Shown here piece after piece: positions 27,920 through 43,553 of a DNA stretch of 49,644 bases (position 1 is its first letter; every line of letters begins with the position of its first letter). Made by a program: the position numbers and the translations under genes. The stretch is from positions 1 to 49,644 of the forward strand of contig JBGPHP010000003.1 of the NCBI GenBank assembly GCA_041484445.1, in the 5' to 3' direction. The notes under the pieces were generated by a model that saw only the letters and a program-made list of their open reading frames with translations, had not been told where the DNA came from and searched no databases. The stretch comes from Gemmatimonadota bacterium. Lineage in GTDB: Bacteria > Gemmatimonadota > Gemmatimonadetes > Gemmatimonadales > GWC2-71-9.

Positions 27920-29074
27920 CTAGCATGATCCTCGGTTGGACAGCGATTGCCAGAACGCGACGGTGCGCTCCGCTACGGCGTCGTCGCTGAACAGCTCGAT
28001 CGCCCGGGCCCGCGCCGCCCGCGCGAGCGCCGCGCGCCGCTCGGGGTCGAGCACCTCGCCCAGGGCCGCGGCCAGCGCCGCCGCGTCGCCCGGCGGTGTG
28101 ACGATCCCCGCCGGACCGATGAGCTCCGGCAACGCGCCGGTGTCGGAGCCGATCACGGCCACTTCGTGCGCCATCGCCTCGAGCAACGTTGTCCCGGTCG
28201 GCTCGTTCCAGCTACCCGAGGGCCGCGAGGGCGCGACCAGCACATCCCAGGACGGCCACCGCAAGGCGAGCTGCTCGGGCGGCAGGGCGCCCACCCAGTG
28301 CACCCGGGCGGCGAGCCGCAGCTCACTCGCCAGCCGCTCGAGGCGCTCGCGCTCGGGGCCGTCACCGGCCACGACGAGTCGCCAGGCGGCGTGACGGTGC
28401 TGCGCCAGCGCTCCGAGCAAGGTATCGAGCCCGCGGTGCGGCACCAGGCGACCCACGAATCCGATGGTGAGACCGTCGTGCGCTTCGTGCGCCGGCGTCG
28501 GTGGGACGGCCGCGCCTTGCGGCGGCAGGACGCCGACCGGCAGGGCCGGTGCGTCGCGCTTCACCAGTTTCGCGGCGCCGTCACTCGCCGCCAGTGCCCC
28601 GGCCAGGCGCCGCAGCGTGCGACGCCGGCGCCAGCGCTCGAGCCAGGAGCGGCCGCCGTCGACGTTGGCGACCGTCACGAGCACCGTCGGGACGCGGAGT
28701 CGCGCGGCGAGCCGCACGAGTTGGCGCGCGAGGGCCGTCTCGGGTTCGGCCTCGATCTGTACCAGCTCAGGCCGCTTGTCGCGCACCAGGGCGGCCAGCG
28801 CACGGGCGGCGAAGCGCGCCTGCGCGGGGTCGCCCATGTGGCGCACGGCGATGGGGAATACTTCGAGCGCCTGCTGCCGCTCCCAGGTGGTTTCGCGCGT
28901 GCGGTCCAGCACCGGATCGCGCCACCGCTGCGGCACGGCGACGGTCAACTCGAGCCCACGTCCGGCGAGGGCGCGCAGCTTGCCCCGGGTGGAAGGCTCG
29001 ATGTAGGCGTGGCCCGCGATGAGCACCCGGCGGATGGTCGGATGGGGGGAGAGACGGACGGAATCCTGGGGCAT
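27920..29074 (-). CDS. Glycosyltransferase family 4 (start 29074 or 29095)
   Basis: IGFVGRLVPHRGL, GDGPER, EPTGTTLLEAMAHEVAVIGSDTGALPE. Confidence 0.88.
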   Translation of the reverse strand: MPQDSVRLSPHPTIRRVLIAGHAYIEPSTRGKLRALAGRGLELTVAVPQRWRDPVLDRTRETTWERQQALEVFPIAVRHMGDPAQARFAARALAALVRDKRPELVQIEAEPETALARQLVRLAARLRVPTVLVTVANVDGGRSWLERWRRRRTLRRLAGALAASDGAAKLVKRDAPALPVGVLPPQGAAVPPTPAHEAHDGLTIGFVGRLVPHRGLDTLLGALAQHRHAAWRLVVAGDGPERERLERLASELRLAARVHWVGALPPEQLALRWPSWDVLVAPSRPSGSWNEPTGTTLLEAMAHEVAVIGSDTGALPELIGPAGIVTPPGDAAALAAALGEVLDPERRAALARAARARAIELFSDDAVAERTVAFWQSLSNRGSC

Positions 29075-29116
29075 GTCAGCGTTTGATCCGCCCATCCGTC
29101 GATCCGCCGATCTGCT
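29029..29116. repeat. Inverted pair of degenerate 4x octamer arrays (GGCGGATG family)
   Basis: GGCGGATG GTCGGATG GGGGGAGA GACGGACG (29029-29060), 24-nt spacer, GATCCGCC CATCCGTC GATCCGCC GATCTGCT (29085-29116). Confidence 0.7.
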
Positions 29117-29142
29117 GGGCGGTGTGGTGTGGTGCGGGGAAG

Positions 29143-29216
29143 TGGGCGGTACAGGACTCGAACCTGTGACCTCCGGTATGTGAGACCGGCGCTCTAACCA
29201 GCTGAGCTAACCACCC
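29143..29216 (-). tRNA. tRNA-Val (CAC)
   Basis: GGGTGGTTAGCTCAGCTGGTTAGAGCGCCGGTCTCACATACCGGAGGTCACAGGTTCGAGTCCTGTACCGCCCA; full cloverleaf; CCA not encoded. Confidence 0.97.
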
Positions 29217-29297
29217 GCAATGAGTCACTCGACTTCGACTGACCGGTGGCCCAAGATAGCTGCAGGCTGGCCGACACGGAACTGGATGACCACAAAT

Positions 29298-29330
29298 AGA
29301 ACGGCCCCTGCATGACGCAGGAGCCGTTCT
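29298..29330 (-). terminator. Probable intrinsic terminator after yggT-like gene
   Basis: Minus strand AGAACGGCTCCTGC-GTCAT-GCAGGGGCCGTTCT (14 bp, one U-G) followed by ATTTGT. Confidence 0.6.
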
Positions 29331-29348
29331 TGGAATTCCAACGCTGTC

Positions 29349-29864
29349 CTAGATCTCGGTCTTCCGGTGTGCGATCAGGCGCAGCAGCGCCTTGATGCCC
29401 ATGTGGAGGACGAGGTAGGCGAGGATCGCGATGACGATCGGGAGGGCCAGCGTGAAGCCTTCAGCCGTCGGGCTCGCCACGATTCCCCGAAACATCGCGT
29501 AGAACGGATCGGTGATGGCGCGGATGAGCTGCACGAAGCCGGTGCCGGCGTTGGCCCCGATCAGGGCGAGGACGAGCCGAATCGCCAGCAACGTGTAGAC
29601 GGCATAAAAGGCGTAATCGACCACCTGCGCGATGCGCGTCAGGCTGCGCGCACGTCCTGCCTCGCGATCGGTGCCGACGACTTCATCGATCGCCTTGCCA
29701 CGAAATTTTTCGGCGACCTGGTCCATCCGCTGACCCTCCGTGCGGGTCGCGTGCTCGGCGCGCTCGGCGATGTCGGCGTTGACATCCTTGTCGACCTGAG
29801 ATTTCATCGAATCATGCAAGACCGCGCGACGTGCTTCGCCGACGGCCACCTTGTTGTCTTCCAT
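29349..29864 (-). CDS. YggT-family membrane protein with charged N-terminal extension
   Basis: LLAIRLVLALIGAN...FVQLIRAITDPFYAMFRGI pattern; AGAGGAG RBS before ATG. Confidence 0.78.
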   Translation of the reverse strand: MEDNKVAVGEARRAVLHDSMKSQVDKDVNADIAERAEHATRTEGQRMDQVAEKFRGKAIDEVVGTDREAGRARSLTRIAQVVDYAFYAVYTLLAIRLVLALIGANAGTGFVQLIRAITDPFYAMFRGIVASPTAEGFTLALPIVIAILAYLVLHMGIKALLRLIAHRKTEI

Positions 29865-30029
29865 AGCTGCTCCTCTATTGAATGTCTCGATCCGCGCGTG
29901 CCGGGTAGACCGATTTCACCACCATGAGGATAGTCCCGGCCACCGTCGCGGGGGTATTAGCCGAAGGGATGGAAAACGGCCTACATCCGTTGACGTACTT
30001 CGCGTGACGCGAACGAGGCCTGGAAGCAT

Positions 30030-30061
30030 GAAGCGGGAGCCGATCATCAGGCTCCCGCTTC
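30030..30061 (-). terminator. Hairpin downstream of tRNA-Ile2, probable terminator
   Basis: GAAGCGGGAGCC-N8-GGCTCCCGCTTC, perfect 12-bp stem. Confidence 0.55.
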
Positions 30062-30121
30062 CTGTGACTCTGATGCGCGACCGGCGCCCGAACCAGCCGA
30101 GCGAACCACTCGGCGAAACCG

Positions 30122-30194
30122 TGGGCCCTCCAGGATTTGAACCTGGGACCGACGGATTATGAGTCCGCTGCTCTAACCACTGAGCTAAGGGCCC
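30122..30194 (-). tRNA. tRNA with CAT anticodon, most likely tRNA-Ile2 (lysidine)
   Basis: GGGCCCTTAGCTCAGTGGTTAGAGCAGCGGACTCATAATCCGTCGGTCCCAGGTTCAAATCCTGGAGGGCCCA; G1-C72 paired (not initiator), C4/C5 acceptor pairs, ileX-like sequence. Confidence 0.9.
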
Positions 30195-30215
30195 GTAACG
30201 ATCGGAAGAATCTAA

Positions 30216-31235
30216 TCATAACAATCCGCCCCTTCGCAACCTCCCCACCTGATCTTGCGCCGCATCGTAGGCTGCGACCACTTCGGTCGGCGTCACGGTG
30301 GCCACGCCCGCCTTCCCGACCTCGATCCCGGCGGCGTAGGTCGCCAGCTCGGCGGCCTCGCGCAGCGACGCACCGGCCGCCAGGGCGGTCCCCATCCACG
30401 CGGTGACGGTATCGCCCGCCCCGGACACGTCGTACACCTCACGCGCCAGCGCCGGAATCCGGGTGAGCTGACGGTCCTTGGTGAGGAGCCCCATCCCCTC
30501 GTCACCGAGGGTGAGCAGCAGGTTGTCGACGCCGAGGCGATCGAGGACCTCGGGGAGCGCGTCGGGATGGGCGAGATCGAGCGCCGCGCCCATCGCCTGC
30601 TCGAGCTCGCGGCGGTTGGGTTTGAAGACGGTGGCGCCCCGGTAGTCGAAGAAGTGGCGGAACTTGGGATCGACGACCACCGGCACACCGCGACGGCGCG
30701 CGGTCGCCATGGCGCGCTCAATGACCGCCGGGGTGAGCGCGCCTTTGTTGTAATCCTCGATGAGCAGCGCATCGGCGTCGGCCATGGCGCGCTCGAGCGC
30801 CTCGGCGAGCGCCTGCGCGGAGCGATCGGGAATGGGGTCGTCTACCTCTTCGTCGATGCGCACGACTTGCTGGCCGCGGGCCACGACGCGCGTCTTCGAC
30901 GTGGTGGGTCGCTCGGGCACGACCACGAGCCAGCCGTCGCCGAGCCGGTGCTGGGCCAGCTCTCCGCGCAGCGAGTCGCCGCGGGCATCATCACCGATCG
31001 GCGCCACCAGGCGTCCTTCGGCGCCGATCGCCGCGACGTTGGCTGCGACGTTGGCGGCGCCGCCGAGGGCGGTGCGGCGCTGACGCACGGTCACGACCGG
31101 GACCGGCGCTTCGGGTGAGATCCGATCGACGTCACCCGCCAGATAGACGTCGAGCATGGCGTCGCCCAGCACGACGATGCGCCGGGCGTGCATCTTGGCG
31201 AGCAGTGCCTCCAGACGATCGCGCGTCAGGTCCAT
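30216..31235 (-). CDS. rfaE1: D-glycero-D-manno-heptose-7-phosphate kinase (stand-alone RfaE/HldE domain I)
   Basis: GDAMLD, RISPEAPVPVV, GGAANVA, DYNKG, DVSGAGDTV. Confidence 0.93.
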   Translation of the reverse strand: MDLTRDRLEALLAKMHARRIVVLGDAMLDVYLAGDVDRISPEAPVPVVTVRQRRTALGGAANVAANVAAIGAEGRLVAPIGDDARGDSLRGELAQHRLGDGWLVVVPERPTTSKTRVVARGQQVVRIDEEVDDPIPDRSAQALAEALERAMADADALLIEDYNKGALTPAVIERAMATARRRGVPVVVDPKFRHFFDYRGATVFKPNRRELEQAMGAALDLAHPDALPEVLDRLGVDNLLLTLGDEGMGLLTKDRQLTRIPALAREVYDVSGAGDTVTAWMGTALAAGASLREAAELATYAAGIEVGKAGVATVTPTEVVAAYDAAQDQVGRLRRGGLL

Positions 31236-31241
31236 GCAGCG

Positions 31242-31269
31242 GGGAACAGGGATGGGGGACGGGGGACGG
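31242..31269. repeat. 4x heptamer array (GGGACGG family) in the 5' leader of rfaE1
   Basis: GGGAACA GGGATGG GGGACGG GGGACGG. Confidence 0.7.
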
Positions 31270-31288
31270 GTCCGTGCATGCCGGGAGC

Positions 31289-31305
31289 AATCTACCTGTT
31301 ATCAT
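31289..31305. promoter_or_regulatory. Back-to-back -10 elements for divergent rfaE1 and asparaginase operon
   Basis: Minus TAGATT (31294-31289); plus extended -10 TGTTATCAT (31297-31305). Confidence 0.4.
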
Positions 31306-31332
31306 TGGCGCTGTCTTCTTCCGGGACCGAGC

Positions 31333-32310
31333 ATGCGCGTCGAGCTGCGCCGCGGCGATCAGACGGAGACGGTGCACCGCGTCCACGTCGCCGTCGTCGA
31401 TGCGGCCGGCGTGCTGATAGCCCGCGCGGGCGACCCGGGGATGTCGACGTTCTGGCGCTCGGCCGCCAAGCCGTTCCAGGCCCTGCCGCTCGTCGCGGAT
31501 GGCGCGGCCGATCGATTCGACCTCACCGATGTCGAGCTGGCGCTGTGCTGCGCGTCCCATTCGAGCGAGCCGCGGCAGGTCGCCTTGGTGCGCGCGTTTC
31601 TCCAGAAGATCGGGTGCCGCGAGGACGATCTGCGCTGCGGACCGCACACACCACTCGCCGACCACGTCGCCAGGGACTACCAGGCGAGCGGCGTGCGGCT
31701 CACGCCGGTGTACTCGAACTGCTCGGGCAAGCACACCGGCATGCTGGCCCTCGCGCGCCATCATGGATGGCCGACGGCGGACTATCATCGCCTGGCCCAC
31801 CCGGTGCAGCAGCGCTGCCTGGAGGAGGTGAGCCGGTGGACGAGAATGTCTCCGGACCAGATCGGCACGGCGGTAGACGGCTGTGGGGTCGTCTGCTACG
31901 CGCTGCCGCTGAGAACCATGGCGTTGGCGTATGCCAGGCTGGGGACGGGGGACGCGGGACGGGGGAAGAGTGGGGACACGTCCCGAGTTGTATCGGCCAT
32001 GCTCCACCACCCCGAGCTGATCGCGGGCGAGCGGCGGCCCTGCACCGAAATGATGTCCGCGTTTCCGGGACGCGTGATCACGAAAGTGGGAGCGGAAGGC
32101 GTGTATTGCGCATTACTGGTACAGGAAGGACTGGGGGTTGCATTGAAAGTGGAAGACGGTCACGGGCCTGCCGCCGTCCTCGCCATGGCGCGCACGCTCG
32201 AAGAGCTGAGCCTGCGACCACAGCCTGCCTCGCTCAGCGCGCGGCCGATCCACAATACGCGGGGCGAGCAGGTCGGCGAGCTGCGTGTTTTGGGCTCCCT
32301 GGAGCGCTAG
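31333..32310 (+). CDS. L-asparaginase, Rhizobium etli type (Asparaginase_II)
   Basis: RSAAKPFQA, ASHS, NCSGKHTGM, DGCG, KVGAEG motifs; ATG 31333. Confidence 0.9.
   Translation: MRVELRRGDQTETVHRVHVAVVDAAGVLIARAGDPGMSTFWRSAAKPFQALPLVADGAADRFDLTDVELALCCASHSSEPRQVALVRAFLQKIGCREDDLRCGPHTPLADHVARDYQASGVRLTPVYSNCSGKHTGMLALARHHGWPTADYHRLAHPVQQRCLEEVSRWTRMSPDQIGTAVDGCGVVCYALPLRTMALAYARLGTGDAGRGKSGDTSRVVSAMLHHPELIAGERRPCTEMMSAFPGRVITKVGAEGVYCALLVQEGLGVALKVEDGHGPAAVLAMARTLEELSLRPQPASLSARPIHNTRGEQVGELRVLGSLER
31942..31969. repeat. 4x heptamer array in frame within asparaginase
   Basis: GGGACGG GGGACGC GGGACGG GGGAAGA, encoding GTGDAGRGKS. Confidence 0.72.
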
Positions 32311-32314
32311 AACG

Positions 32315-35060
<2,746 letters not shown>

Positions 35061-35062
35061 AT

Positions 35063-35111
35063 GAATGCAGAGTGTCGACGTTCGGCATTCCGCATGCCTC
35101 ACTCTGCATTC
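35063..35111. repeat. 12-bp inverted repeat with heptamer periodicity (GAATGCA/TGCATTC family)
   Basis: GAATGCAGAGTG...CACTCTGCATTC; right side reads GGCATTC CGCATGC CTCACTC TGCATTC. Confidence 0.6.
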
Positions 35112-35127
35112 GCTTAGATTGTCACTA

Positions 35128-36237
35128 GTGCACCACCTCTACCTCCACGTTCCATTCTGTGTTCGTCGCTGCTCGTATTGCGACTTCTCGATCGCGGTGC
35201 GCAAGCGGGTTCCGGCGGACGAGTACGTCGCCGCAATTCGCGCCGAGCTCGAATCCGCCGGTCAGATTGGCCCGCTGGAGACGATCTATCTGGGCGGCGG
35301 AACACCATCACTGCTCCCGCCGCATGCCGTAGCGACGCTGCTTCAGTACGTCGTCGACCATACGTCCTCTCCGTACGCCGTCGAAGTGACGCTCGAGGCC
35401 AATCCCGAAGATGTGACGCCCGAAGCCGCGCGTGCCTGGCTCGCCGCCGGCGTCAATCGAGTCTCGCTTGGCGCGCAATCGTTCCAAGACCCGGTTCTCC
35501 AGTGGATGCACCGCTCGCATGATGCCGGCCGGATCGGGGGTGCCGTAGAGACACTGCGCCGTGCGGGAATCGACAACGTCTCGCTCGACCTCATCTTCGC
35601 GCTGCCCCGGGAGCTGGGACGCGACTGGTCCCGGGATCTGGACTTGGCGCTCGCCCTCGAGCCCGAGCACCTCTCCTTGTATGGTCTCACCGTGGAGCCG
35701 CGGACGCCCTTGGCGCGATGGCTGTCACGCGGTGCCGCCACCGCGACCGATGACGAGTGCTACGCCGAGGAGTATCTGATGGCGCACGAGCGGCTATCCG
35801 GTGCCGGGTATGCGTTCTACGAAGTCTCGAATGCTGCGCGCGACGGTCGTCGGTCTCGTCACAACAGCGCCTACTGGAGCGGTCGGGCCTATCGCGGGCT
35901 CGGACCCGCCGCACACTCCTACGACGGGCGGACGCGTCGCTGGAATCTCACGGCGTGGGAGGCGTACCGTCGCGCGCTGGCGGACGGTCGCTCAGCGGTT
36001 GAGTCCGAGGAGACTCTCAGCGACGAGCAGCGGGATCTGGAACGCCTGTATCTGGGTTTGCGTACGGCGGACGGCGTCCCCTCGACCATCCTCCACCGAC
36101 CGCTACAGCCGCTCCAATCGATGCTGGCCAGAGGCTGGGTGGTGGTGGACAACGGCTTGGTCCGCTGCACTCCGGAAGGCTGGCTCCGCCTCGACGCCCT
36201 GGTCGGTGCCTTGACCGGCTCGGTGGCAACTTCGTAA
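35128..36237 (+). CDS. hemW: Radical SAM heme chaperone HemW
   Basis: LYLHVPFCVRRCSYCDF, YLGGGTPS, EANP, YEVSN, HNSAYW; GTG start 35128. Confidence 0.93.
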   Translation: MHHLYLHVPFCVRRCSYCDFSIAVRKRVPADEYVAAIRAELESAGQIGPLETIYLGGGTPSLLPPHAVATLLQYVVDHTSSPYAVEVTLEANPEDVTPEAARAWLAAGVNRVSLGAQSFQDPVLQWMHRSHDAGRIGGAVETLRRAGIDNVSLDLIFALPRELGRDWSRDLDLALALEPEHLSLYGLTVEPRTPLARWLSRGAATATDDECYAEEYLMAHERLSGAGYAFYEVSNAARDGRRSRHNSAYWSGRAYRGLGPAAHSYDGRTRRWNLTAWEAYRRALADGRSAVESEETLSDEQRDLERLYLGLRTADGVPSTILHRPLQPLQSMLARGWVVVDNGLVRCTPEGWLRLDALVGALTGSVATS

Positions 36238-36240
36238 TTT
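36211..36240 (+). promoter_or_regulatory. Candidate sigma-70 promoter of hrcA-dnaJ
   Basis: TTGACC-N18-TAATTT overlapping the hemW stop. Confidence 0.45.
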
Positions 36241-36266
36241 GTTTCCCTGAAAGGGGTTGGAAGTCC

Positions 36267-37295
36267 TTGGCCACATCGCAGCTGAGTGAGCGCGAACGTC
36301 TCGTCCTGGGCGCCGTGATCGAGACCTACGTCCAGACCGCCGAGCCGGCGGCCAGCCGGACCATCGCCAAGCGGTTCGGTCTGGGCCTGTCGGCCGCCAC
36401 CATTCGCAATACGATGAGCGATCTGGAGGAGAAGGGGTTCCTCTATCACCCCCACACCTCCGCCGGCCGCATTCCCACCGATCAGGCCTACCGCATGTAC
36501 GTGGATGCGCTGACGCGCCTGCCGGCCGTCTCGCTCGACGAGGCGCATCAGATCCGCGAGGGGCTGGCCGGACCGCGCAACGCGGTGGACCAGATCCTGG
36601 CGCGGGCGGCTCAGGTGCTCGGCGTGCTCACGCAGGAGCTGGGGATGGCCGTCGGCCCGTCGCTCGATGAGGCCGTCCTGGAGCGGCTCGAGCTGCTCGC
36701 CGTGTCGAGCGACCGCCTGCTGCTCGTGTTGACGCTGAAGAGCGGGGCGGTGCGCACGATTTTCGTCGAGGTGCCGTCCCACATGGCGGCGCAGGCGGTG
36801 GTGCAGGTCTCCGTCGTCCTGAACGAGCGACTCGCCGGACTCACGCTCAAAGAGATCCGCTCGACGTTGTCGGAGCGGCTGCGCGACGCTACGCCGAGCC
36901 CGGAGTCTAGCGATCTGTTGAACATCTTCATCCAGGAGGCGGACGAGCTGTTCGAGGTGCCGGCGACCGGCGTGCTGCTGTCGTCGGCCCAGCTGCTCGC
37001 CGGGCAGCCGGAGTTCGCGTCCGCCGAGCGGCTGCAAGGCCTGCTCCAGGTCACCGAGCGCCGTGACCTGCTGCGCGAAGCGCTCGCGCAGCGCACCTCA
37101 CCCGGACTCACCATCACGATCGGTAGCGAACACGTGGATCCGAAGCTCGCCGCGTTCACGCTGGTCACGTCGTCGTACCGGTCGGGTCCGTTGTCGGGAG
37201 TCATCGGGGTGCTGGGGCCGACCCGGATGCCGTACGATAAGATCGTGGCGCTGGTGGATCACACCAGCCGCCTGGTGCAGGAGCTGCTGCAATGA
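36267..37295 (+). CDS. hrcA: Heat-inducible transcription repressor HrcA
   Basis: [37 protein letters not shown]. Confidence 0.97.
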
Positions 37296-38452
37296 GCCGT
37301 CGCGGGGACTTTTACACGGTGCTCGGCGTCGCGCGCGACGCGTCGGAAGCGGAGATCAAGAAGGCGTACCGCAAGCTCGCCATGGAATTCCACCCGGACC
37401 GCAATCCGGCGCCCGAGGCGGAGGAGCGGTTCAAGCAGATCACGGAAGCCTACGAGGTGCTACGCGATTCCGATCAGCGGGCGACCTACGACCGCTTCGG
37501 CGAAGCGGGACTCAAGGGCGGCGGGGGCGGCCCCTTCAGCGGCGGATTCGCGCACTTCGATCTCTCCGAAGCACTCAACATCTTCATGCGGGACTTCGGC
37601 GGGCTGGGCGGCTTCGATGCGTTCTTCGGGGGCGGCGAACGCAGCCGCCGCGACCGCCGCCGCGGGCCGGATCTCAAAGTATCGATCAAGCTCTCGCTCT
37701 CCGAAGTCGCGACGGGGGCGACGAAGGCGCTGAAGCTGCGTACGCTCGATACGTGCACGGTCTGTCAGGGGACCGGCGCCAAAGCCGGGACCAAGGCGAC
37801 GACATGCGGCACCTGCGGCGGCAGCGGGGAAGTGCGCCGCGCCGCGCAGTCGATGTTCGGTCAATTCGTGTCGGTGTCGCCGTGTCCCGCGTGTGCCGGT
37901 GAGGGGACCGTGGTGCGCGAGCCATGCCCCACCTGCCGGGGCGACGGCCGCGTCAAAGCGGAAAAGACGGTGCAGCTCGATGTCCCCGCCGGCGTCGCCG
38001 ATCACCACTACCTGACCGTACGCGGCCAGGGTGTGCCGGGCCCACGCAACGGGCCGCCGGGGGATCTGATCGCGGTGCTGGAGATCGCCGAGGATCCGCG
38101 CTTCGAGCGGCACGGCGACGACCTGGTGTACGATCTCCCGATCTCGTTCAGCCAGGCCGCGCTCGGCCTCGAAGCGGAAATCCCGACGCCGTATGGCTCG
38201 GCCCATCTCAAAGTGCAGCCCGGAACACAGACCGGCACCATCTACCGTTTGCGCGCCAAGGGCCTGCCGCGCCTGGGCGAGAGCGGCCACGGCGATCTGC
38301 ACGTGCGCATTCAGGTCTGGACTCCCACGCGTCTCACCCCCGAGCAAGAGTTGGCGTTCCAGGAGCTTGGCAAGGTCGAGGGGGAGCCGCCGTCGGCCGA
38401 GAGCCTGGGTCGCGGCTTCTGGAACAAGCTCCGTGAGGCGTTCGGGGCGTGA
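37292..38452 (+). CDS. dnaJ: Chaperone DnaJ (type I)
   Basis: J domain with HPD, G/F-rich region, four CxxCxGxG repeats. Confidence 0.98.
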
Positions 38453-38790
38453 CGAGCGATTGTCTGTTCTGCAAAGTCGCGCGCGGCGAGATCCCGGCGA
38501 GCATCGTGCAGCGGACCGGACGGCTGCTGGCGTTCCGCGATATCAACCCGCAGGCCCCTACGCATCTGCTCGTGATCCCCGTCGATCATGTGGCGTCGCT
38601 CGAAGCGGCGAGCGACGGTGCGCTGCTCGGCGAGCTGCTGTTGTTCACCCGGAGCCTCGCGCGGGACGCAGGATTGGGCGAGCGGGGGTATCGGATCGTG
38701 CTCAACACGAACGCCGACGGCGGTCAGACGGTGTTCCATCTCCACGCCCATCTGCTCGGCGGGCGGGCGATGCGGTGGCCGCCTGGCTAG
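38449..38790 (+). CDS. Histidine triad nucleotide-binding protein (HinT)
   Basis: [34 protein letters not shown]. Confidence 0.95.
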
Positions 38791-38793
38791 GAC

Positions 38794-38823
38794 TTGCGGC
38801 GCTTCGACCGCGACCGCTAACTT
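38794..38823 (+). promoter_or_regulatory. Candidate sigma-70 promoter for rpsU-yqeY-mutS2-dnaG
   Basis: TTGCGG-N18-TAACTT. Confidence 0.4.
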
Positions 38824-38881
38824 GGCTGGTCTTCCACAGTTAGCCATCGGCCAGAGGATTCGGGGAACGACGAGAACGACG

Positions 38882-38973
38882 ATGCCCGAAGTCATCATTC
38901 ACGACGACGAAAGCTTCGAGCGCCCAAGATGAACGCGGCACGTCGCAAGACCCGGCGCCCGCGTTCGTTCTGA
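38882..38973 (+). pseudogene. rpsU: 30S ribosomal protein bS21 with internal deletion and frameshift
   Basis: MPEVIIHDDESFER (bS21 N-terminus) joined out of frame to KMNAARRKTRRPRSF* (bS21 C-terminus); only 92 nt; canonical position between HIT and yqeY. Confidence 0.85.
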
Positions 38974-38974
38974 G

Positions 38975-39418
38975 ATGCCGAGCCTCGGCGAGCGGCTACA
39001 GGCCGCGCTCAACGAGGCGCGCAAGGCCCGCGATCAGGCCCGCACGCTGCTCCTCTCGACCATCCTGGCAGATCTCAAGAACCGCGAATTCGAGCTCCAC
39101 CACCCGCTGACCGACGAAGAAGCGGTGGAGGTCGTGCGTCGCGGCGTCAAGCGGCGGCACGAGGCGGCCGAGCAGTTTGCGGCGGGCGGGCGGCAGGATC
39201 GGGCCGCCGTCGAGCTCGCGGAGGTCGCGGCGCTCGAGGTGTTTCTCCCGGCGCAAGTGCCGCCGGAGGAGATCCGGGCCGCGGTGCGCGCCGCCATCGC
39301 CGGTGGCGCGACGGAGCTCGGCAAGGTCATGGGACAGGTGATGCCACGCTTCAAAGGGCGCGCGGACGGCAAGCTGATCAGCCAGATCGCGCGCGAGGAG
39401 CTGTCAGCGAGCGTATGA
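38975..39418 (+). CDS. yqeY: GatB/YqeY domain protein
   Basis: EARKARD, KRRHEAAEQF..GGR, LGKVMG, GRADGK. Confidence 0.93.
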   Translation: MPSLGERLQAALNEARKARDQARTLLLSTILADLKNREFELHHPLTDEEAVEVVRRGVKRRHEAAEQFAAGGRQDRAAVELAEVAALEVFLPAQVPPEEIRAAVRAAIAGGATELGKVMGQVMPRFKGRADGKLISQIAREELSASV

Positions 39419-41799
39419 ATCAGGGAGGCGGGATCCCCCCCGCCGTGTTGGACACTCTCGAATTCCCGGCCGCCCTGGAGCGGGTGGCGGCGTTCGCCGC
39501 CGGCGCGCTCGGCGCGGCCCGGGTGCGGGCGCGGATGCCCGACGCCGACGCGGAGCGCGTCCGCGACGCGCTGGCTCAGGTGGCCGAGCTGGCGGCCCTG
39601 ATCATCACCGATGACACGCTGCGCGCCGAGCCGGTGCCGGATCTGACCGATTCGCTCGCCGTGCTGCGGGTTCCGGGGAGCGTGCTCGAAGGGACGGCGC
39701 TCGGTGCGTTCGCGGTCGCGCTCGCCGCGGCTCAGGTGGTCGGGGCCGCGCTGGGCCGGCTGGAGCGCGACGCGCCCCGGTTGGCGGCGCTGCGCGTCCC
39801 GTTGCCGCCGCGGCAGCTGGAGACGCGCCTGCGCGAGGCGATCGATCCGGCGGGCGACGTGCTCGACGGGGCCTCGCGCGAGCTGGCGCGCGCACGGCGG
39901 GCGGTGCGGGAGACGCGCGCCAAACTCGTCGCCCGTCTGGAGCGTCTCCTCGTCGATTTGGACCCCCAGGATCGCGCCCCCGACGCGGCGGTGACGGTGC
40001 GGGCCGGCCGCTACGTCATCCCCGTGCGCAGCACGGCGCGCGGCCGCGTGGGCGGGATCGTGCACGACGCCTCCGCTACCCGCGCCACCGTCTTCGTCGA
40101 GCCGCCCGAGGTCATCGAGCTGGGAAACGAGCTGCGCGACCGCGAGGCCGACGAGCAGCGCGAGGTGCTGCGGGTGCTGCGGGACTTGACCGACACCCTG
40201 CGTCCCCACGCGGCCGCGATCGCCGCCGCCTGGGAGATGTGCCTCGCGTTCGACGACCTGTGCGCCCGCGCGCGCTACTCCGTGGACGTGAACGGCTTCG
40301 CCCCCGACATCGGGGGAGGACCCGTGAAGATCCGCGGCGGGCGTCACCCGCTGCTGCTCGGTGGCGAGATCGTGGTCGTTGCTTTCGATCTCGAGCTTGC
40401 CCCGGATGAGTACACGGTGCTCATTTCCGGTCCCAACACCGGCGGGAAGACCGTCCTCATCAAAGCCGTTGGACTCCTGTGCCTGCTCGCCCAGAGCGGC
40501 ATCATCCCGCCGATCGGCCCGCAGTCGCGGCTGCCGGTCTTCACCCGGGTGTTCGCGGACATCGGGGACCGGCAGTCCATCGCCGCCAGCCTGTCCACTT
40601 TCTCCGCGCACGTGGCCGCGCTGCGCGACATTTTGGAACACTCCGATGGCGCCTCCCTCGTGCTGCTGGACGAAGTGGGCAGCGGCACCGATCCGGCCGA
40701 AGGCGCGGCTCTGGCCGCCGCGGCGCTGCGCAGCCTCACGCGCCGCCACGCCGTCACGCTCGCCACGACCCACCTCGGCGCGCTGAAACGGCTCGCGTCG
40801 GAATCGGTCGGCGTCGTCAACGCGTCGCTGCAATTCGACGCCGACACGTTGACGCCGACGTACCGGCTGCTGAAAGGCATCCCCGGACGCTCGTACGGAC
40901 TCGCGATCGCCCGCCGTCTGGGGGTGGCAGGGGAGGTGCTCGCCGACGCGGAGCGGACGGTCCCGGACGCGGAGCGGCGCCTCGACGCGCTGCTCGCCGA
41001 CGTCGAAGCGCGCGCGCGGGCGCTGGCGGAACGTGAGGAGGCGCTGGCCCAGGCGGAGGCAGCGGCCATCGAGGATCAGGCCCGGCTCGAAGAGCGAGCG
41101 GGCACGCTCAGCCGTCATGAGCGCGACGTTGCGCAACGGGAGCGCTCGGCCGACGCCCGCGCCCGCGATCAGGCGCGCGACTATCTCCTCGAAGCCCGGA
41201 AGACCGTCGAAGCAGCCCTGGGGCAGGCACGGGCGGCCGTCGACGAAGCCACGGCACGTGAGGCGCGCCGGATGCTCGAGCGGGCGATTGCGGAAACAAA
41301 GGACGACGGATGGGCGGATGGGCGGATAGGCGGATGGAAAGAGCTGCACGTCGGCGATCGCATCCGAACCAAGGAAGGGATGGTCGGGGCGGTGCGGGAG
41401 TTGCGTCCGGACGGGAGTCTGGTGATCGAGGCCGGCGCCGTTCGGATCGTCGCTCGCCCGGATAGCGTCGCTGCGGTTCTCGAGCCGACCGCGGCACCCG
41501 GTCCCAAGCCTCTGCCATCCGCCCATCCGACCATCCGCCCATCCGCCGGCGACGTCACATCGGAAATCAAACTTCTCGGACTCCGCGTCGACGAAGCGGA
41601 AGCCGAGCTGACGCACGCACTCGACGCCGCGATCCAGACCGATCTGCCGTACTTGCGGATCATCCACGGCAAAGGCACCGGCGCGCTGCGCGAGCTGGTG
41701 CACCGCATCCTCGCGACCGACCCACGCATCGCGCACTTCGCGATCGCTCCGGCCAATCAGGGGGGCGCTGGCGTCACGGTGGTCGAGTTCCGGGCGTGA
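39415..41799 (+). CDS. mutS2: Endonuclease MutS2 (ATPase, coiled coil, KOW, SMR)
   Basis: SGPNTGGKT, DIGDRQSI..SLSTFS, LLDEVGSGTDP, TTH, GIPGRS, SMR IIHGKGTGALR and GGAGVT. Confidence 0.96.
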   Translation: MNQGGGIPPAVLDTLEFPAALERVAAFAAGALGAARVRARMPDADAERVRDALAQVAELAALIITDDTLRAEPVPDLTDSLAVLRVPGSVLEGTALGAFAVALAAAQVVGAALGRLERDAPRLAALRVPLPPRQLETRLREAIDPAGDVLDGASRELARARRAVRETRAKLVARLERLLVDLDPQDRAPDAAVTVRAGRYVIPVRSTARGRVGGIVHDASATRATVFVEPPEVIELGNELRDREADEQREVLRVLRDLTDTLRPHAAAIAAAWEMCLAFDDLCARARYSVDVNGFAPDIGGGPVKIRGGRHPLLLGGEIVVVAFDLELAPDEYTVLISGPNTGGKTVLIKAVGLLCLLAQSGIIPPIGPQSRLPVFTRVFADIGDRQSIAASLSTFSAHVAALRDILEHSDGASLVLLDEVGSGTDPAEGAALAAAALRSLTRRHAVTLATTHLGALKRLASESVGVVNASLQFDADTLTPTYRLLKGIPGRSYGLAIARRLGVAGEVLADAERTVPDAERRLDALLADVEARARALAEREEALAQAEAAAIEDQARLEERAGTLSRHERDVAQRERSADARARDQARDYLLEARKTVEAALGQARAAVDEATAREARRMLERAIAETKDDGWADGRIGGWKELHVGDRIRTKEGMVGAVRELRPDGSLVIEAGAVRIVARPDSVAAVLEPTAAPGPKPLPSAHPTIRPSAGDVTSEIKLLGLRVDEAEAELTHALDAAIQTDLPYLRIIHGKGTGALRELVHRILATDPRIAHFAIAPANQGGAGVTVVEFRA
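41305..41336 (+). repeat. 4x octamer array, left arm, in frame in mutS2
   Basis: GACGGATG GGCGGATG GGCGGATA GGCGGATG, encoding DGWADGRIGGW. Confidence 0.85.
41516..41547 (-). repeat. 4x octamer array, right (inverted) arm, in frame in mutS2
   Basis: CATCCGCC CATCCGAC CATCCGCC CATCCGCC, encoding PSAHPTIRPSA. Confidence 0.85.
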
Positions 41800-43553
41800 G
41801 CCTCATCCCCGACGATCTGATCGAGCAGATCCGCGACGCGGCGGATCTGGTCGGGATCATCGGGGAATCGGTCGAGCTGAAGCGCAGCGGCTCGGACTTC
41901 CGTGGACCGTGCCCGTTTCACGGCGGCACGCACCGCAACTTCGCCGTGATTCCCAAAAAGGGGATGTTTCACTGCTTCGTGTGCCACGCCTCGGGAGACG
42001 TGTTCACCTTCTTCATGAAGCGGCTGGGCATGGACTACCCGACGGCAGTGCGCGAAGTGGCGCGCCGCACCGGTATCACGATCCCCGAGAAAGGCCCATC
42101 GGGCCCCGATCCGCGCGAGCCGCTGTATTCCGCCGTCGCCGCGGCGCACGACTGGTTCGCGCGGGCGCTGCACGACAACCCGGAGGCGGACGCGGCGCGG
42201 GCCTACCTGATCTCGCGCGAGCTCACGCTCGAGCAGGCGACCGAATTGGGCCTGGGCTATGCGCCACGCGGGGCGGCGTTCGCCGCCGCGATGCAGACGC
42301 TCGGCATCGAGGAGGCCGTACTCCTCGAGGCGGGGCTCCTGCGTCGCAAGGACGACGGTGTCGTCGTGCCGCGATTCCGCGGGCGGTTGCTGTTCCCGAT
42401 TCACGACCTGCGCGGGCGCGTCGTCGCGTTCGGCGGCCGCATCCTCGGGGAAGGGGAGCCGAAGTACCTCAACTCTCCCGAGACGCCGATCTTCCACAAG
42501 GGAAAGCTGCTCTACCATCTACACGCGGCGCGGCCCGCCATGCGGAAAGCGGATCGCGCACTGCTCGTCGAGGGGTACTTCGACGTCATCCGATTGGCGC
42601 TCGCCGGGATCGAGGAAGTCGTCGCCCCGATGGGGACGGGACTCACGCCGGATCAGGCCGAGCTGCTGCGGCGCTACGCGCCCCAGGTCTTGCTGTGCTA
42701 TGACTCGGACGACGCCGGCTTGCGCGCGACGTTCCGGGCCGGCGACGAGCTGCTGCGCGCCGGCGTGCGGGTGGCCGTGGCGACGCTGCCGGAAGGCGAG
42801 GACCCCGACTCGCTGGTGCGCCAGAGCGGGGCGGCCGGCCTCGAGGCGATTCTGCGGGATGCGGTGGACGTGCTCGAGCGCAAGATCCAGATCCTCGAGC
42901 GCAAGCGGTTCTTCGAGACCCTGCCAGGCCGGCGCCGCGCGCTCGACCGGCTGTTGCCCACGATCCGCGCCGCGAGCGATCCGATCACGCGTGAGCTGTA
43001 TCTCAGTCGTGTGTCCGAGATGGCGCACATCAGAAAAGACGTCCTGGAACGGGAAGTGGGGACGCGGGACGCGGGACGGGGGACGAGTCCGGCCGCGGCA
43101 CCATCCGTCTCCCGTCCCTCGTCCCCCGTCCCGAATAACGGCGAGCGCGCGATCCTTCTGGTCATGCTCCAAGGCGATGCCTGGCGCGCACGGGTGCTCG
43201 AGAAAGTGGATCCCGAAGACATCGAGCATCCGCTGTATCGACGCGTGTTCGAGGCGCTGGTGGAAGGGCGTCCGGACACGCTCGAGGGGGCCGAGGCGCG
43301 CGTGTATGAATCGCTTCGGGGGGAGCCCTCGGAGACGGGCGAGCCCGACACGTTGTTCGATCGGGCGGTGAACTGGATCGAGGCGCGGCGGCTGGACCGG
43401 GAGCTGGAGCGCCTGGAGCGGGAGATCCCGCTCGCATCTGGAGCAGAACAGGACCGGCTGGTGCGCGACGTCCAACGGGTGTCCGCCGAGCGAAACAGGT
43501 TGTTCCCACGGTACAAGATCGCTTCGAGGAGGAGTGGTGCATCCGGATCTTGA
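41796..43553 (+). CDS. dnaG: DNA primase
   Basis: CPFH...CFVC zinc finger, PKYLNSPET, TOPRIM VEGYFDV, YDSDDAG, EDPD. Confidence 0.98.
   Translation: MSLIPDDLIEQIRDAADLVGIIGESVELKRSGSDFRGPCPFHGGTHRNFAVIPKKGMFHCFVCHASGDVFTFFMKRLGMDYPTAVREVARRTGITIPEKGPSGPDPREPLYSAVAAAHDWFARALHDNPEADAARAYLISRELTLEQATELGLGYAPRGAAFAAAMQTLGIEEAVLLEAGLLRRKDDGVVVPRFRGRLLFPIHDLRGRVVAFGGRILGEGEPKYLNSPETPIFHKGKLLYHLHAARPAMRKADRALLVEGYFDVIRLALAGIEEVVAPMGTGLTPDQAELLRRYAPQVLLCYDSDDAGLRATFRAGDELLRAGVRVAVATLPEGEDPDSLVRQSGAAGLEAILRDAVDVLERKIQILERKRFFETLPGRRRALDRLLPTIRAASDPITRELYLSRVSEMAHIRKDVLEREVGTRDAGRGTSPAAAPSVSRPSSPVPNNGERAILLVMLQGDAWRARVLEKVDPEDIEHPLYRRVFEALVEGRPDTLEGAEARVYESLRGEPSETGEPDTLFDRAVNWIEARRLDRELERLEREIPLASGAEQDRLVRDVQRVSAERNRLFPRYKIASRRSGASGS
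43059..43132. repeat. Inverted pair of 4x heptamer arrays in frame in dnaG
   Basis: GGGACGC GGGACGC GGGACGG GGGACGA, 18 nt, CCGTCTC CCGTCCC TCGTCCC CCGTCCC. Confidence 0.88.

Follow-up and report, generated by a model that had tools for sequence, protein, structure and literature searches.

Palindromic DNA that sits in frame inside housekeeping genes and adds surface peptides is familiar from Rickettsia palindromic elements (RPEs), which are copies of a conserved consensus of about 100–150 bp. Dispersed arrays of four heptamer or octamer units have been published for Xanthomonas, Geobacter and cyanobacteria, and the intervening sequence of Coxiella is also described as containing heptamers. 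Rehm et al. (2015; PMC4692102) reported GGGAATC heptamers in Xanthomonas and GGGGA(C/T)T heptamers in Nostoc, with unknown function; the Xcc genome has 186 repeats with 70 cases of convergent inverted pairs, four units being the commonest number and most repeats lying between genes near gene ends. The same paper cites the short tandemly repeated repetitive (STRR) sequences of heterocystous cyanobacteria, dispersed tandem heptamers whose function is likewise given as unknown. In Geobacter metallireducens, four tandem GGGACCG heptamers occupy 49 inter- and intragenic places, and four tandem octamers or five tandem heptamers form pairs with one member on either strand and a varying distance between them (Aklujkar et al. 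2009; PMC2700814). The Coxiella intervening sequence carries 2 or 3 tandem heptamers, depending on the strain, just before its S23p open reading frame (ORF), and RNase III cuts it at the first heptamer repeat; the S23p intervening sequence is suspected of being mobile, with a possible role of its ORF in that mobility (Warrier et al. 2016; PMC4990558). Here we analyze tandem arrays of this kind in a 49,644-nt stretch of DNA, the window, which is part of the assembly GCA_041484445.1 of a Gemmatimonadota soil bacterium (contig JBGPHP010000003.1). They belong to a dispersed, fast-turning system of repeat-armed hairpins with one architecture and are not gene-specific motifs. Its full-size members carry, between the arms, a gene of the PF05635 family (23S_rRNA_IVP, NCBIfam TIGR02436), the S23p/Avd-like four-helix bundle encoded by the ORF of 23S rRNA intervening sequences.

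The arms are runs of about 3–5 units, each 7 or 8 nt long and in some cassettes up to 12 nt, with two arms facing each other; most copies are ORF-less hairpins or single arms. They sit in short intergenic spacers or, in frame, in tolerant loops and linkers of proteins. The in-frame habit is shared with RPEs; unlike in RPEs, only the short tandem units recur, and the loops are unrelated. The Xanthomonas and Nostoc repeats have in common with this system the dispersed 7-nt tandem units, about four per array, the convergent inverted pairs and the intergenic enrichment, whereas here many 7- and 8-nt families coexist, about a third of the arrays are in frame, and there is an explicit link to PF05635. 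That family is absent from the main text of PMC4692102 (0 hits for five terms), which discusses quadruplexes. The Geobacter repeats resemble ours in their four-unit arrays, inverted pairs, inter- and intragenic placement and several families per genome; in the available sections of that report they are interpreted as regulator-binding sites or regulatory RNAs, with no comparison of relatives and no link to a gene. The STRR heptamers have other words and belong to another phylum, and pairing, in-frame copies or a gene link are not part of the account given of them in PMC4692102. An initial annotation of the window had held that the known analogues differ in layout, which was too strong, as Geobacter and Xanthomonas, on these published descriptions, share the four-unit, paired, inter- and intragenic layout.

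Intervening sequences of the S23p type (Leptospira, Coxiella and others) are alike in having an inverted-repeat stem around a PF05635-family ORF with tandem heptamers adjacent, a likeness that concerns the gene-bearing relatives of the window elements and not the six window sites themselves. They differ in residing in helix 45 (or 25) of the 23S rRNA and being excised by RNase III, whereas the cassettes examined here lie between protein genes and have beside them about a hundred hairpins without an ORF, a part of which is translated. PF05635 is also described as resembling Avd of diversity-generating retroelements (PMC10053308), which combine a small pentameric four-helix-bundle protein with nucleic-acid templated replacement of sequence. 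In the present genus no template/variable repeat pair was found, reverse transcriptase (PF00078) is present in 3 of 21 congeners and missing from the other 18, including the genome of the window, and the match of the PF05635 protein to the Avd model is weak (E 5e-4, below the cut-off). A reverse transcriptase as the driver is thus unsupported.

To place the window arrays in their genome (G000; the window is contig C3, other G codes denote related genomes and L codes loci), tandem arrays were counted with a first cut of at least three copies. G000 holds 127 arrays of period 7 and 65 of period 8, against 18–26 and 14–19 in five versions of the genome shuffled codon-wise within genes, an excess of about 4–6 times; periods 10 and 11 give 9 and 5 arrays in the real genome. 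A stricter cut gives 131 arrays, 80 of period 7 and 51 of period 8, spread over many contigs. They have a median of 3.7 units (interquartile range 3.25–4.1), and only 1 of the 131 reaches at least six. An optimum of array length was not seen in run-length counts of exact words, which are uninformative because unit variants fragment the runs.

An inverted partner lies within 250 nt of 57 of the 131 arrays and of none of 131 random controls. The resulting 43 paired elements enclose loops of 1–177 nt (median 17), and their first arm is purine-rich in 33 cases, pyrimidine-rich in 6 and neutral in 4 (G-rich 29, C-rich 4, neutral 10). Arm order is constant within a word family: GCTATCG forms the first arm in all 6 pairs of G000 and all 9 of the relative G071, and GACRTCR in 5 of 5. 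The dispersal and the purine-first order, both anticipated by the initial annotation, are thus borne out genome-wide. Copies with the same word have mutually unrelated loops and flanks, and no target duplication was found at the 43 pairs (0 nt in 32, 1 nt in 11). Three broad word groups stand out, GGGGANG, GCYRTCR/GACRTCR and the octamers RGGCGGWY, with further smaller ones; the groups intergrade via single-letter steps, and mixed words occur inside one array.

Comparison of orthologous sites revealed both filled and empty states and exchanges of units, as the initial annotation had suggested looking for. In the linker of DnaG, a heptamer pair stands at the same place in 8 of 14 congener sequences; G006 has GGGGAAG/CTTCCCC where the window has GGGGACG/CGTCCCC, so that both arms are altered. 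The other six, two of them (L007, L009) from unpublished genomes, lack the array with the linker length unchanged, and octamer arrays occupy this linker in three genomes from another family of the order. Both MutS2 arms recur with the same spacing and other octamer words at 7 of 15 congener loci, as called by Tandem Repeats Finder (TRF). Among 15 related loci, the asparaginase II loop is short in seven, holds a two-unit seed in one and arrays in seven, all in frame and built from five words (GGGGACG, GGGGATN, GCGGATT, GTGCGCG, GGGTGTR).

The spacer sites behave alike. The pair at 29028–29112 is kept in G007 and replaced by a GGAATGC/GCATTCC heptamer pair in G006 and G003; the site of 31233–31280 lacks the element in G007 and has one in G006 and G003. 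At this last site in G003 (L087, G003:C99), five GGGACT hexamer units directly precede GGGACGA heptamers, a change of unit length inside one array. The site of 35063–35111 is empty in G007 and G014, of the same type in G003, and holds a GCGGATT/AATCCNC pair in G006; these states show that this decayed hairpin is a true member of the family. At G000:C7:955, five genomes show GACATCA, an empty site, GCTATCG (twice) and GGGGACG, and at C178:2820 GACATCR, GCCRTCA, GCTATCG (twice) and GTTATCG. The empty G007 site at C22:11318 delimits the element exactly, with no duplication, and at G000:C22:18768 a single unit in G006 corresponds to 21 additional nt in frame in G000. As read from the alignments of the first ten spacer sites, an element is present in 23 of 29 congener comparisons, and in about 15 of these it has another word; G007, the closest relative, lacks the element at 6 examined sites. 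Gain and loss are therefore precise and without target duplication, sites are long-lived across the genus, and word changes are compensatory in both arms.

Words also partly follow the genome. Counted as 21-nt windows with at most 2 mismatches in G000, G007, G003, G014, G006 and G015, respectively, three units of GACRTCA give 34, 24, 2, 0, 0 and 10 windows, of CCGATAG 20, 16, 49, 53, 101 and 1, and of GGGGACG 37, 32, 47, 86, 38 and 0. In a sample of 151 genomes of the phylum, three units of CCGATAG are found in 19, all of one family (0 to 174 windows), and three of GGGGACG in 29, with at least 8 windows in only 6. For CCGATAG, reversing the pattern does not give a valid control, since it yields a rotation of the same repeat. 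That words differ at shared sites and partly follow the genome suggests that some process works across loci. An enzyme acting in trans, as the initial annotation proposed, would be one such process, but neither a reverse transcriptase nor a RAYT transposase is supported in this role.

A candidate partner is the PF05635 protein, which was detected in all 21 congeners (2–9 matches each; 7 in G000, with C134:1668-1985 and C149:679-990 among them) and in 1 of 14 control genomes. Inverted tandem arrays enclose all 6 copies that could be evaluated in G000. Over the genus as a whole, inverted flanks reach a score of at least 13 at 58 of 68 loci, made up of 23 of 29 in a first set and 35 of 39 in a second; leaving out the unpublished G018 and G004, the count is 53 of 63. 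This score was reached by 1 of 68 direct-repeat controls, by 13 of 300 segments drawn at random and by 10 of 355 small genes of other kinds (2.8–4.3% for the last two). Nine of the ten small genes, from G000, look like chance matches of GC-rich sequence and the tenth (C30:18168-18578) simply lies between neighbouring arrays; other small cargo genes were rejected for G000. The suggestion that some pairs might flank small ORFs, four-helix-bundle genes among them, thus proved fruitful, and the arms are strongly associated with PF05635 genes.

The cassettes usually consist of an arm, 100–150 nt, the ORF, 10–50 nt and the inverted arm, with arms of period 7 or 8 and some of 10–12. Their words are those of the ORF-less hairpins (GCCRTCA, GCTATCG, GACGTCA, GGTGYCR, GTGCGCG, GGGGAAG, AGGCGGTC, AGACGGGT), and arm word families cluster on the PF05635 protein tree. 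In G003, G014 and G006, a cassette of about 432 nt lies exactly between the stop of the ORF at 32285–32971 and the start of obg; in the window and G007 the overlapping TGATG stands there instead. From genome to genome the arm words of this cassette are AATGCGG/AGTGCGG, ATTGCGG and GAATGCA, both arms being altered, and these words recur in nearby ORF-less hairpins, among them the window site 35063–35111 and the GT4 leader site of G006 and G003. For the G000 protein, the structure PDB 2gsc (5 chains; XCC0516 of Xanthomonas campestris) was a match with E 2.5e-20; it is cited as a homopentameric ring of four-helix bundles (PMC4990558). In the supplement of Rehm et al., four GGGAATC-type units (repeat 15) overlap the annotated start of the same XCC0516 (PMC4692102). 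Our literature searches on Gemmatimonadota repeats and on PF05635, S23p or TIGR02436 found, within the texts they covered, no paper linking the family to dispersed heptamer arrays.

Taken together, the arrays may be arms of selfish hairpin elements, a family of the type represented by the intervening sequences of bacterial 23S rRNA, an explanation that we regard as evenly poised. Its mechanism would have the pentameric PF05635 protein read the tandem units, roughly one unit per subunit, which would explain the 7–8-nt period and the preference for about four units. The protein could then promote the spread or homogenization of arrays with its own word. Slippage would add or remove units, three at a time inside genes, and template switching within the hairpin would maintain the complementarity of the arms; translated peptides and mRNA hairpins would be by-products, tolerated and not selected. 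A wider form of the idea, which we find doubtful and advance only tentatively, is that PF05635 pentamers are sequence-specific word readers that form, with the arrays, one widespread unrecognized class of mobile or self-homogenizing elements, from Xanthomonas, Geobacter, cyanobacteria and many uncultured phyla to rRNA intervening sequences, in which each clade would propagate its own word, rewrite older arrays at fixed sites and, as a side effect, write new loops into essential proteins.

Several observations weigh against the selfish-element explanation. The MutS2 arms flank 177 nt of coding sequence with the spacing kept in congeners, so this pair is not a simple hairpin insertion, and the 21-nt growth in place from a local single unit indicates that slippage alone makes some arrays. 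Several class II words coexist side by side per genome, and we know of no catalytic activity of PF05635. Seventeen ORF-less loops of at least 25 nt, compared with 75 cassette sequences, gave no match at E up to 0.01; they were rejected as remnants of cassette interiors, and any derivation of ORF-less copies from cassettes is conjectural. In G220, whose cassette word is GGCTATT, no array of three such units at up to 1 mismatch was found, a failure of the prediction of a master copy, and the cassette word of G014 is only the second most common in that genome. No cassette with exact GGGGACG or GGCGGATG words was found in the G000 assembly, which is 68% complete. The PF05635 gene could also be a passenger that settles in hairpin loops.

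This last point leads to a purely cis-acting origin, in which slippage from seeds, a partner arm made by fold-back or template switching, quasi-palindrome correction and short-patch gene conversion would suffice, with PF05635 genes as unrelated passengers. The growth by exactly three units at G000:C22:18768 fits it, as do the mixed words within arrays, the one-letter-step chains between words, the adjoining hexamer and heptamer runs with a common core in G003, the lack of resemblance between ORF-less loops and cassettes, and short palindromes at three empty sites (GGATCC, CCATGG, GCCATTGGC); that heptamers favour polymerase slippage is an idea of Mrazek (2007), as quoted in PMC4679880. It leaves unaccounted for, however, why 85% of PF05635 genes but 3–4% of controls lie between inverted arrays, why protein clades track words, the narrow unit count and fixed arm order per family, and the wholesale swap between the unrelated words GGGGACG, GCTATCG and GACATCA at G000:C7:955. 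We consider it unlikely. Less likely again, and in our view improbable, are selected cis-regulatory structures, whether RNase III sites, stabilizers, terminators, G-quadruplexes or the binding sites of a four-helix-bundle regulon. Site persistence across the genus, compensatory changes and strong folds would suit such a role, as would the RNase III cut at the first Coxiella heptamer and the likeness of G-rich words with four G-tracts to Xanthomonas repeats that form quadruplexes in vitro (PMC4692102). By the sequence rule of four runs of at least three G, GGGGACG- and GGGCGG-type arrays are candidates and GCYRTCR-type arrays are not, and class II words lack G-tracts. The context of intergenic arrays (47 co-directional, 13 divergent, 9 convergent) mirrors the genome background (1447/429/438), which makes a dedicated terminator role unlikely; T-tails are absent, arrays are not enriched between convergent genes, and the lone terminator-like site within 28900–35300 is not at an array, and intrinsic terminators were rejected on these grounds. 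Against regulation speak also the 6 sites without an element in G007, the placement in unrelated genes and inside protein loops, and single arrays that fold no better than shuffles.

Movement by a transposase, as for repetitive extragenic palindrome (REP)/REPIN elements or MITEs (miniature transposable elements with inverted repeats) served by RAYT/IS200-like Y1 or DDE enzymes, is largely refuted and seems very improbable to us. G000 does have two Y1 transposase genes, all three Y1 copies of G051 lie inside CCRATAG-type arrays, and the lack of target duplication is as in the IS200/IS605 family. The Y1 genes, however, have REP-like hairpins of another kind for themselves, and their occurrence does not follow that of the arrays: an array lies within 450 nt of only 8 of 39 Y1 loci (0.36 vs 0.15 per kb), G167 has the largest CCGATAG bloom (174 windows) and no Y1 gene, and only 45 of 81 genomes of the family have one. 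The RAYT/REP driver was rejected on this basis, and the missing duplications and the unrelated, non-conserved loops and flanks speak against MITEs. As observations on the Y1 loci themselves, the RAYT-like gene at G000:C230:2400-3300 (L176) has on its flanks several copies of a multi-hairpin REP-like sequence of its own, which is almost confined to this locus within the assembly. The G051 units (C10; L167, L170, L174) have direct-orientation arrays on both sides and look as if they had been inserted into an array. In G071, a 26-nt unit repeated four times directly follows a Y1 transposase gene (C3; L172:1857-1959).

Returning to the window, the initial annotation had noted six sites of one architecture of about four 7- or 8-nt units. 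TRF called arrays at five of them (Table 1), and the sixth, 35063–35111, is a decayed heptamer hairpin with the congener support given above. It has a 12-bp stem whose right half is a decayed four-unit heptamer run, folds at -26.3 kcal/mol (z -5.0) and provides the dprA stop codon TGA. Among the other sites, a fold of -58.5 kcal/mol (z -5.0) is obtained for the DnaG pair and one with z -4.5 for the two MutS2 arms across their 177 nt, in agreement with the suggestion that the arrays generate linker peptides and strong hairpins, the folds here being computed. The 29028–29112 pair folds weakly better than shuffles (z -1.6), and the fold of 31233–31280 is not significant.

Table 1. Array sites of the window with their Tandem Repeats Finder (TRF) calls, and neighbouring genes, whose identities were assigned by Pfam.
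Feature	Position	Strand	TRF call	Placement and remarks
Inverted octamer-array pair	29028–29112		29085–29112, period 8, 3.5 copies	Between tRNA-Val and GT4 gene, spanning ATG at 29076
Left arm of this pair	29028–29050			GGCGGATG-type, decayed; pairs with right arm 29085–29112
Single G-rich heptamer array (31249–31270)	31233–31280		31249–31270, period 7, 3.1 copies	Closed by short stem CATGCA...TGCATG; in spacer of the divergent genes pfkB-like and asparaginase II
Heptamer array, GGGGACG x3.7, with mini-hairpin	31941–31984	+	31941–31966, period 7, 3.7 copies	In frame, asparaginase II residues about 203–217
Empty site	32969–32973	+		Overlapping stop/start TGATG of ORF 32285–32971 and obg; cassette here in G003, G014, G006
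Decayed GAATGC-type heptamer hairpin	35063–35111		none	Between dprA stop and radical-SAM gene
G-rich octamer arm, left	41307–41337	+	41307–41337, period 8, 3.9 copies	In frame, MutS2 residues 631–641
C-rich octamer arm, right	41515–41547	+	41515–41547, period 8, 4.1 copies	In frame, MutS2 residues 701–711, before Smr domain; 177 nt past left arm
Inverted heptamer pair, GGGGACG-type	43059–43132	+	43059–43085, period 7, 3.9 copies; 43105–43132, period 7, 4.0 copies	In frame, DnaG linker residues about 422–446; arms as in TRF call
GT4 glycosyltransferase	27920–29095	-
PfkB-type kinase	30216–31235	-
Asparaginase II	31333–32310	+
Obg		+		After ORF 32285–32971
DprA	33927–35060
Radical-SAM gene	35065–36237			ORF
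MutS2	39415–41799	+		MutS_V residues 336–515, Smr residues 719–793
DnaG	41796–43553	+
RecJ				Window gene

The initial annotation had described the arrays as colonizing housekeeping genes in frame. In the window this applies to three of the six sites (asparaginase II, the MutS2 arms and the DnaG pair), while the other three lie in spacers; on the genome scale it holds, since Pfam domains were found around or across the array in 19 of 20 array-bearing ORFs searched. In-frame hosts include dnaG, mutS2, asparaginase II, cytidylate kinase (cmk), MeaB, YidC, a secretin, 2-oxoglutarate dehydrogenase, an E2 acyltransferase (both lipoyl linkers), phosphoglucomutase, Ffh/SRP54, an ABC ATPase and a DHODH-ferredoxin fusion. 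Gene calls came from a crude caller based on third-position G+C (87% coverage, starts too long), so the location counts are approximate: about 71 of the 131 arrays lie outside ORFs or at their edges, with non-coding DNA making up about 13% of the genome, and of 82 arrays in ORFs 40 have a same-frame coding signature on both sides. Roughly a third of the 131 are thus in frame inside real genes, and intergenic arrays commonly occupy the whole of a short spacer. The asparaginase II array region aligns without gaps to a segment of similar length in the homologue PDB 8cly. Of the peptides said to be shared by unrelated proteins, DAGRG is indeed common to asparaginase II and DnaG, and HPTIR is present in MutS2, but the GT4 ORF contains HPTIR only if it starts at the upstream ATG at 29076 or 29095, and in G006 and G003 the gene starts at the later 'RRVLI' position.

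Further features of the window and its assembly were recorded. G000 comprises 315 contigs and 3.19 Mb at 68.9% G+C, and the nearest named homologues of the window asparaginase II are in metagenome-assembled genomes (MAGs) of uncultured Gemmatimonadales/Gemmatimonadota (85–89% identity), among which G000 is presumably to be placed. The contig pairs C20:3937-4051/C87:2601-2715 and C164:6229-6540/C37:1990-2301 contain the same locus twice, as reverse complements or near-duplicates; they are probably strain variants or redundant MAG contigs, and copy counts are slightly inflated by them. The start of obg is most likely the ATG at 32971 in the overlapping TGATG and not the first start codon of the long ORF 32779–33963, since the Pfam Obg domain opens at residue 67 of that ORF and congeners align from MFIDR. 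The terminator-like site mentioned above, 29298–29330 on the minus strand, lies downstream of an ORF without Pfam match (29349–29864, minus strand). At G000:C38:8245-8275 and in congeners, a conserved C/G-rich hairpin follows just past an array, which stands between the stop codon and the hairpin; this hairpin is probably the real terminator. TRF found no arrays of period 7 or 8 with at least three copies in positions 1–27000, and the radical-SAM ORF at 35065 has a third-position G+C of 0.75 versus about 0.85, which fits a more recent acquisition of this region, not yet colonized.

Neither the over-representation of heptamers in bacterial genomes nor the S23p genes of rRNA intervening sequences have found an explanation in decades, and this genus links the two statistically. 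The value of the present case lies in the comparative evidence and in a PF05635 link made testable (58 of 68 loci against 3–4% of controls). The elements matter for annotation, because they shift start and stop codons (dprA, obg, GT4) and fuse ORFs. Through them, essential proteins such as DnaG, MutS2, Ffh, YidC and others quickly gain and exchange disordered loops. If PF05635 pentamers do read the words and form one class of element with their arrays, the dispersed arrays and the rRNA intervening sequences would be one system.

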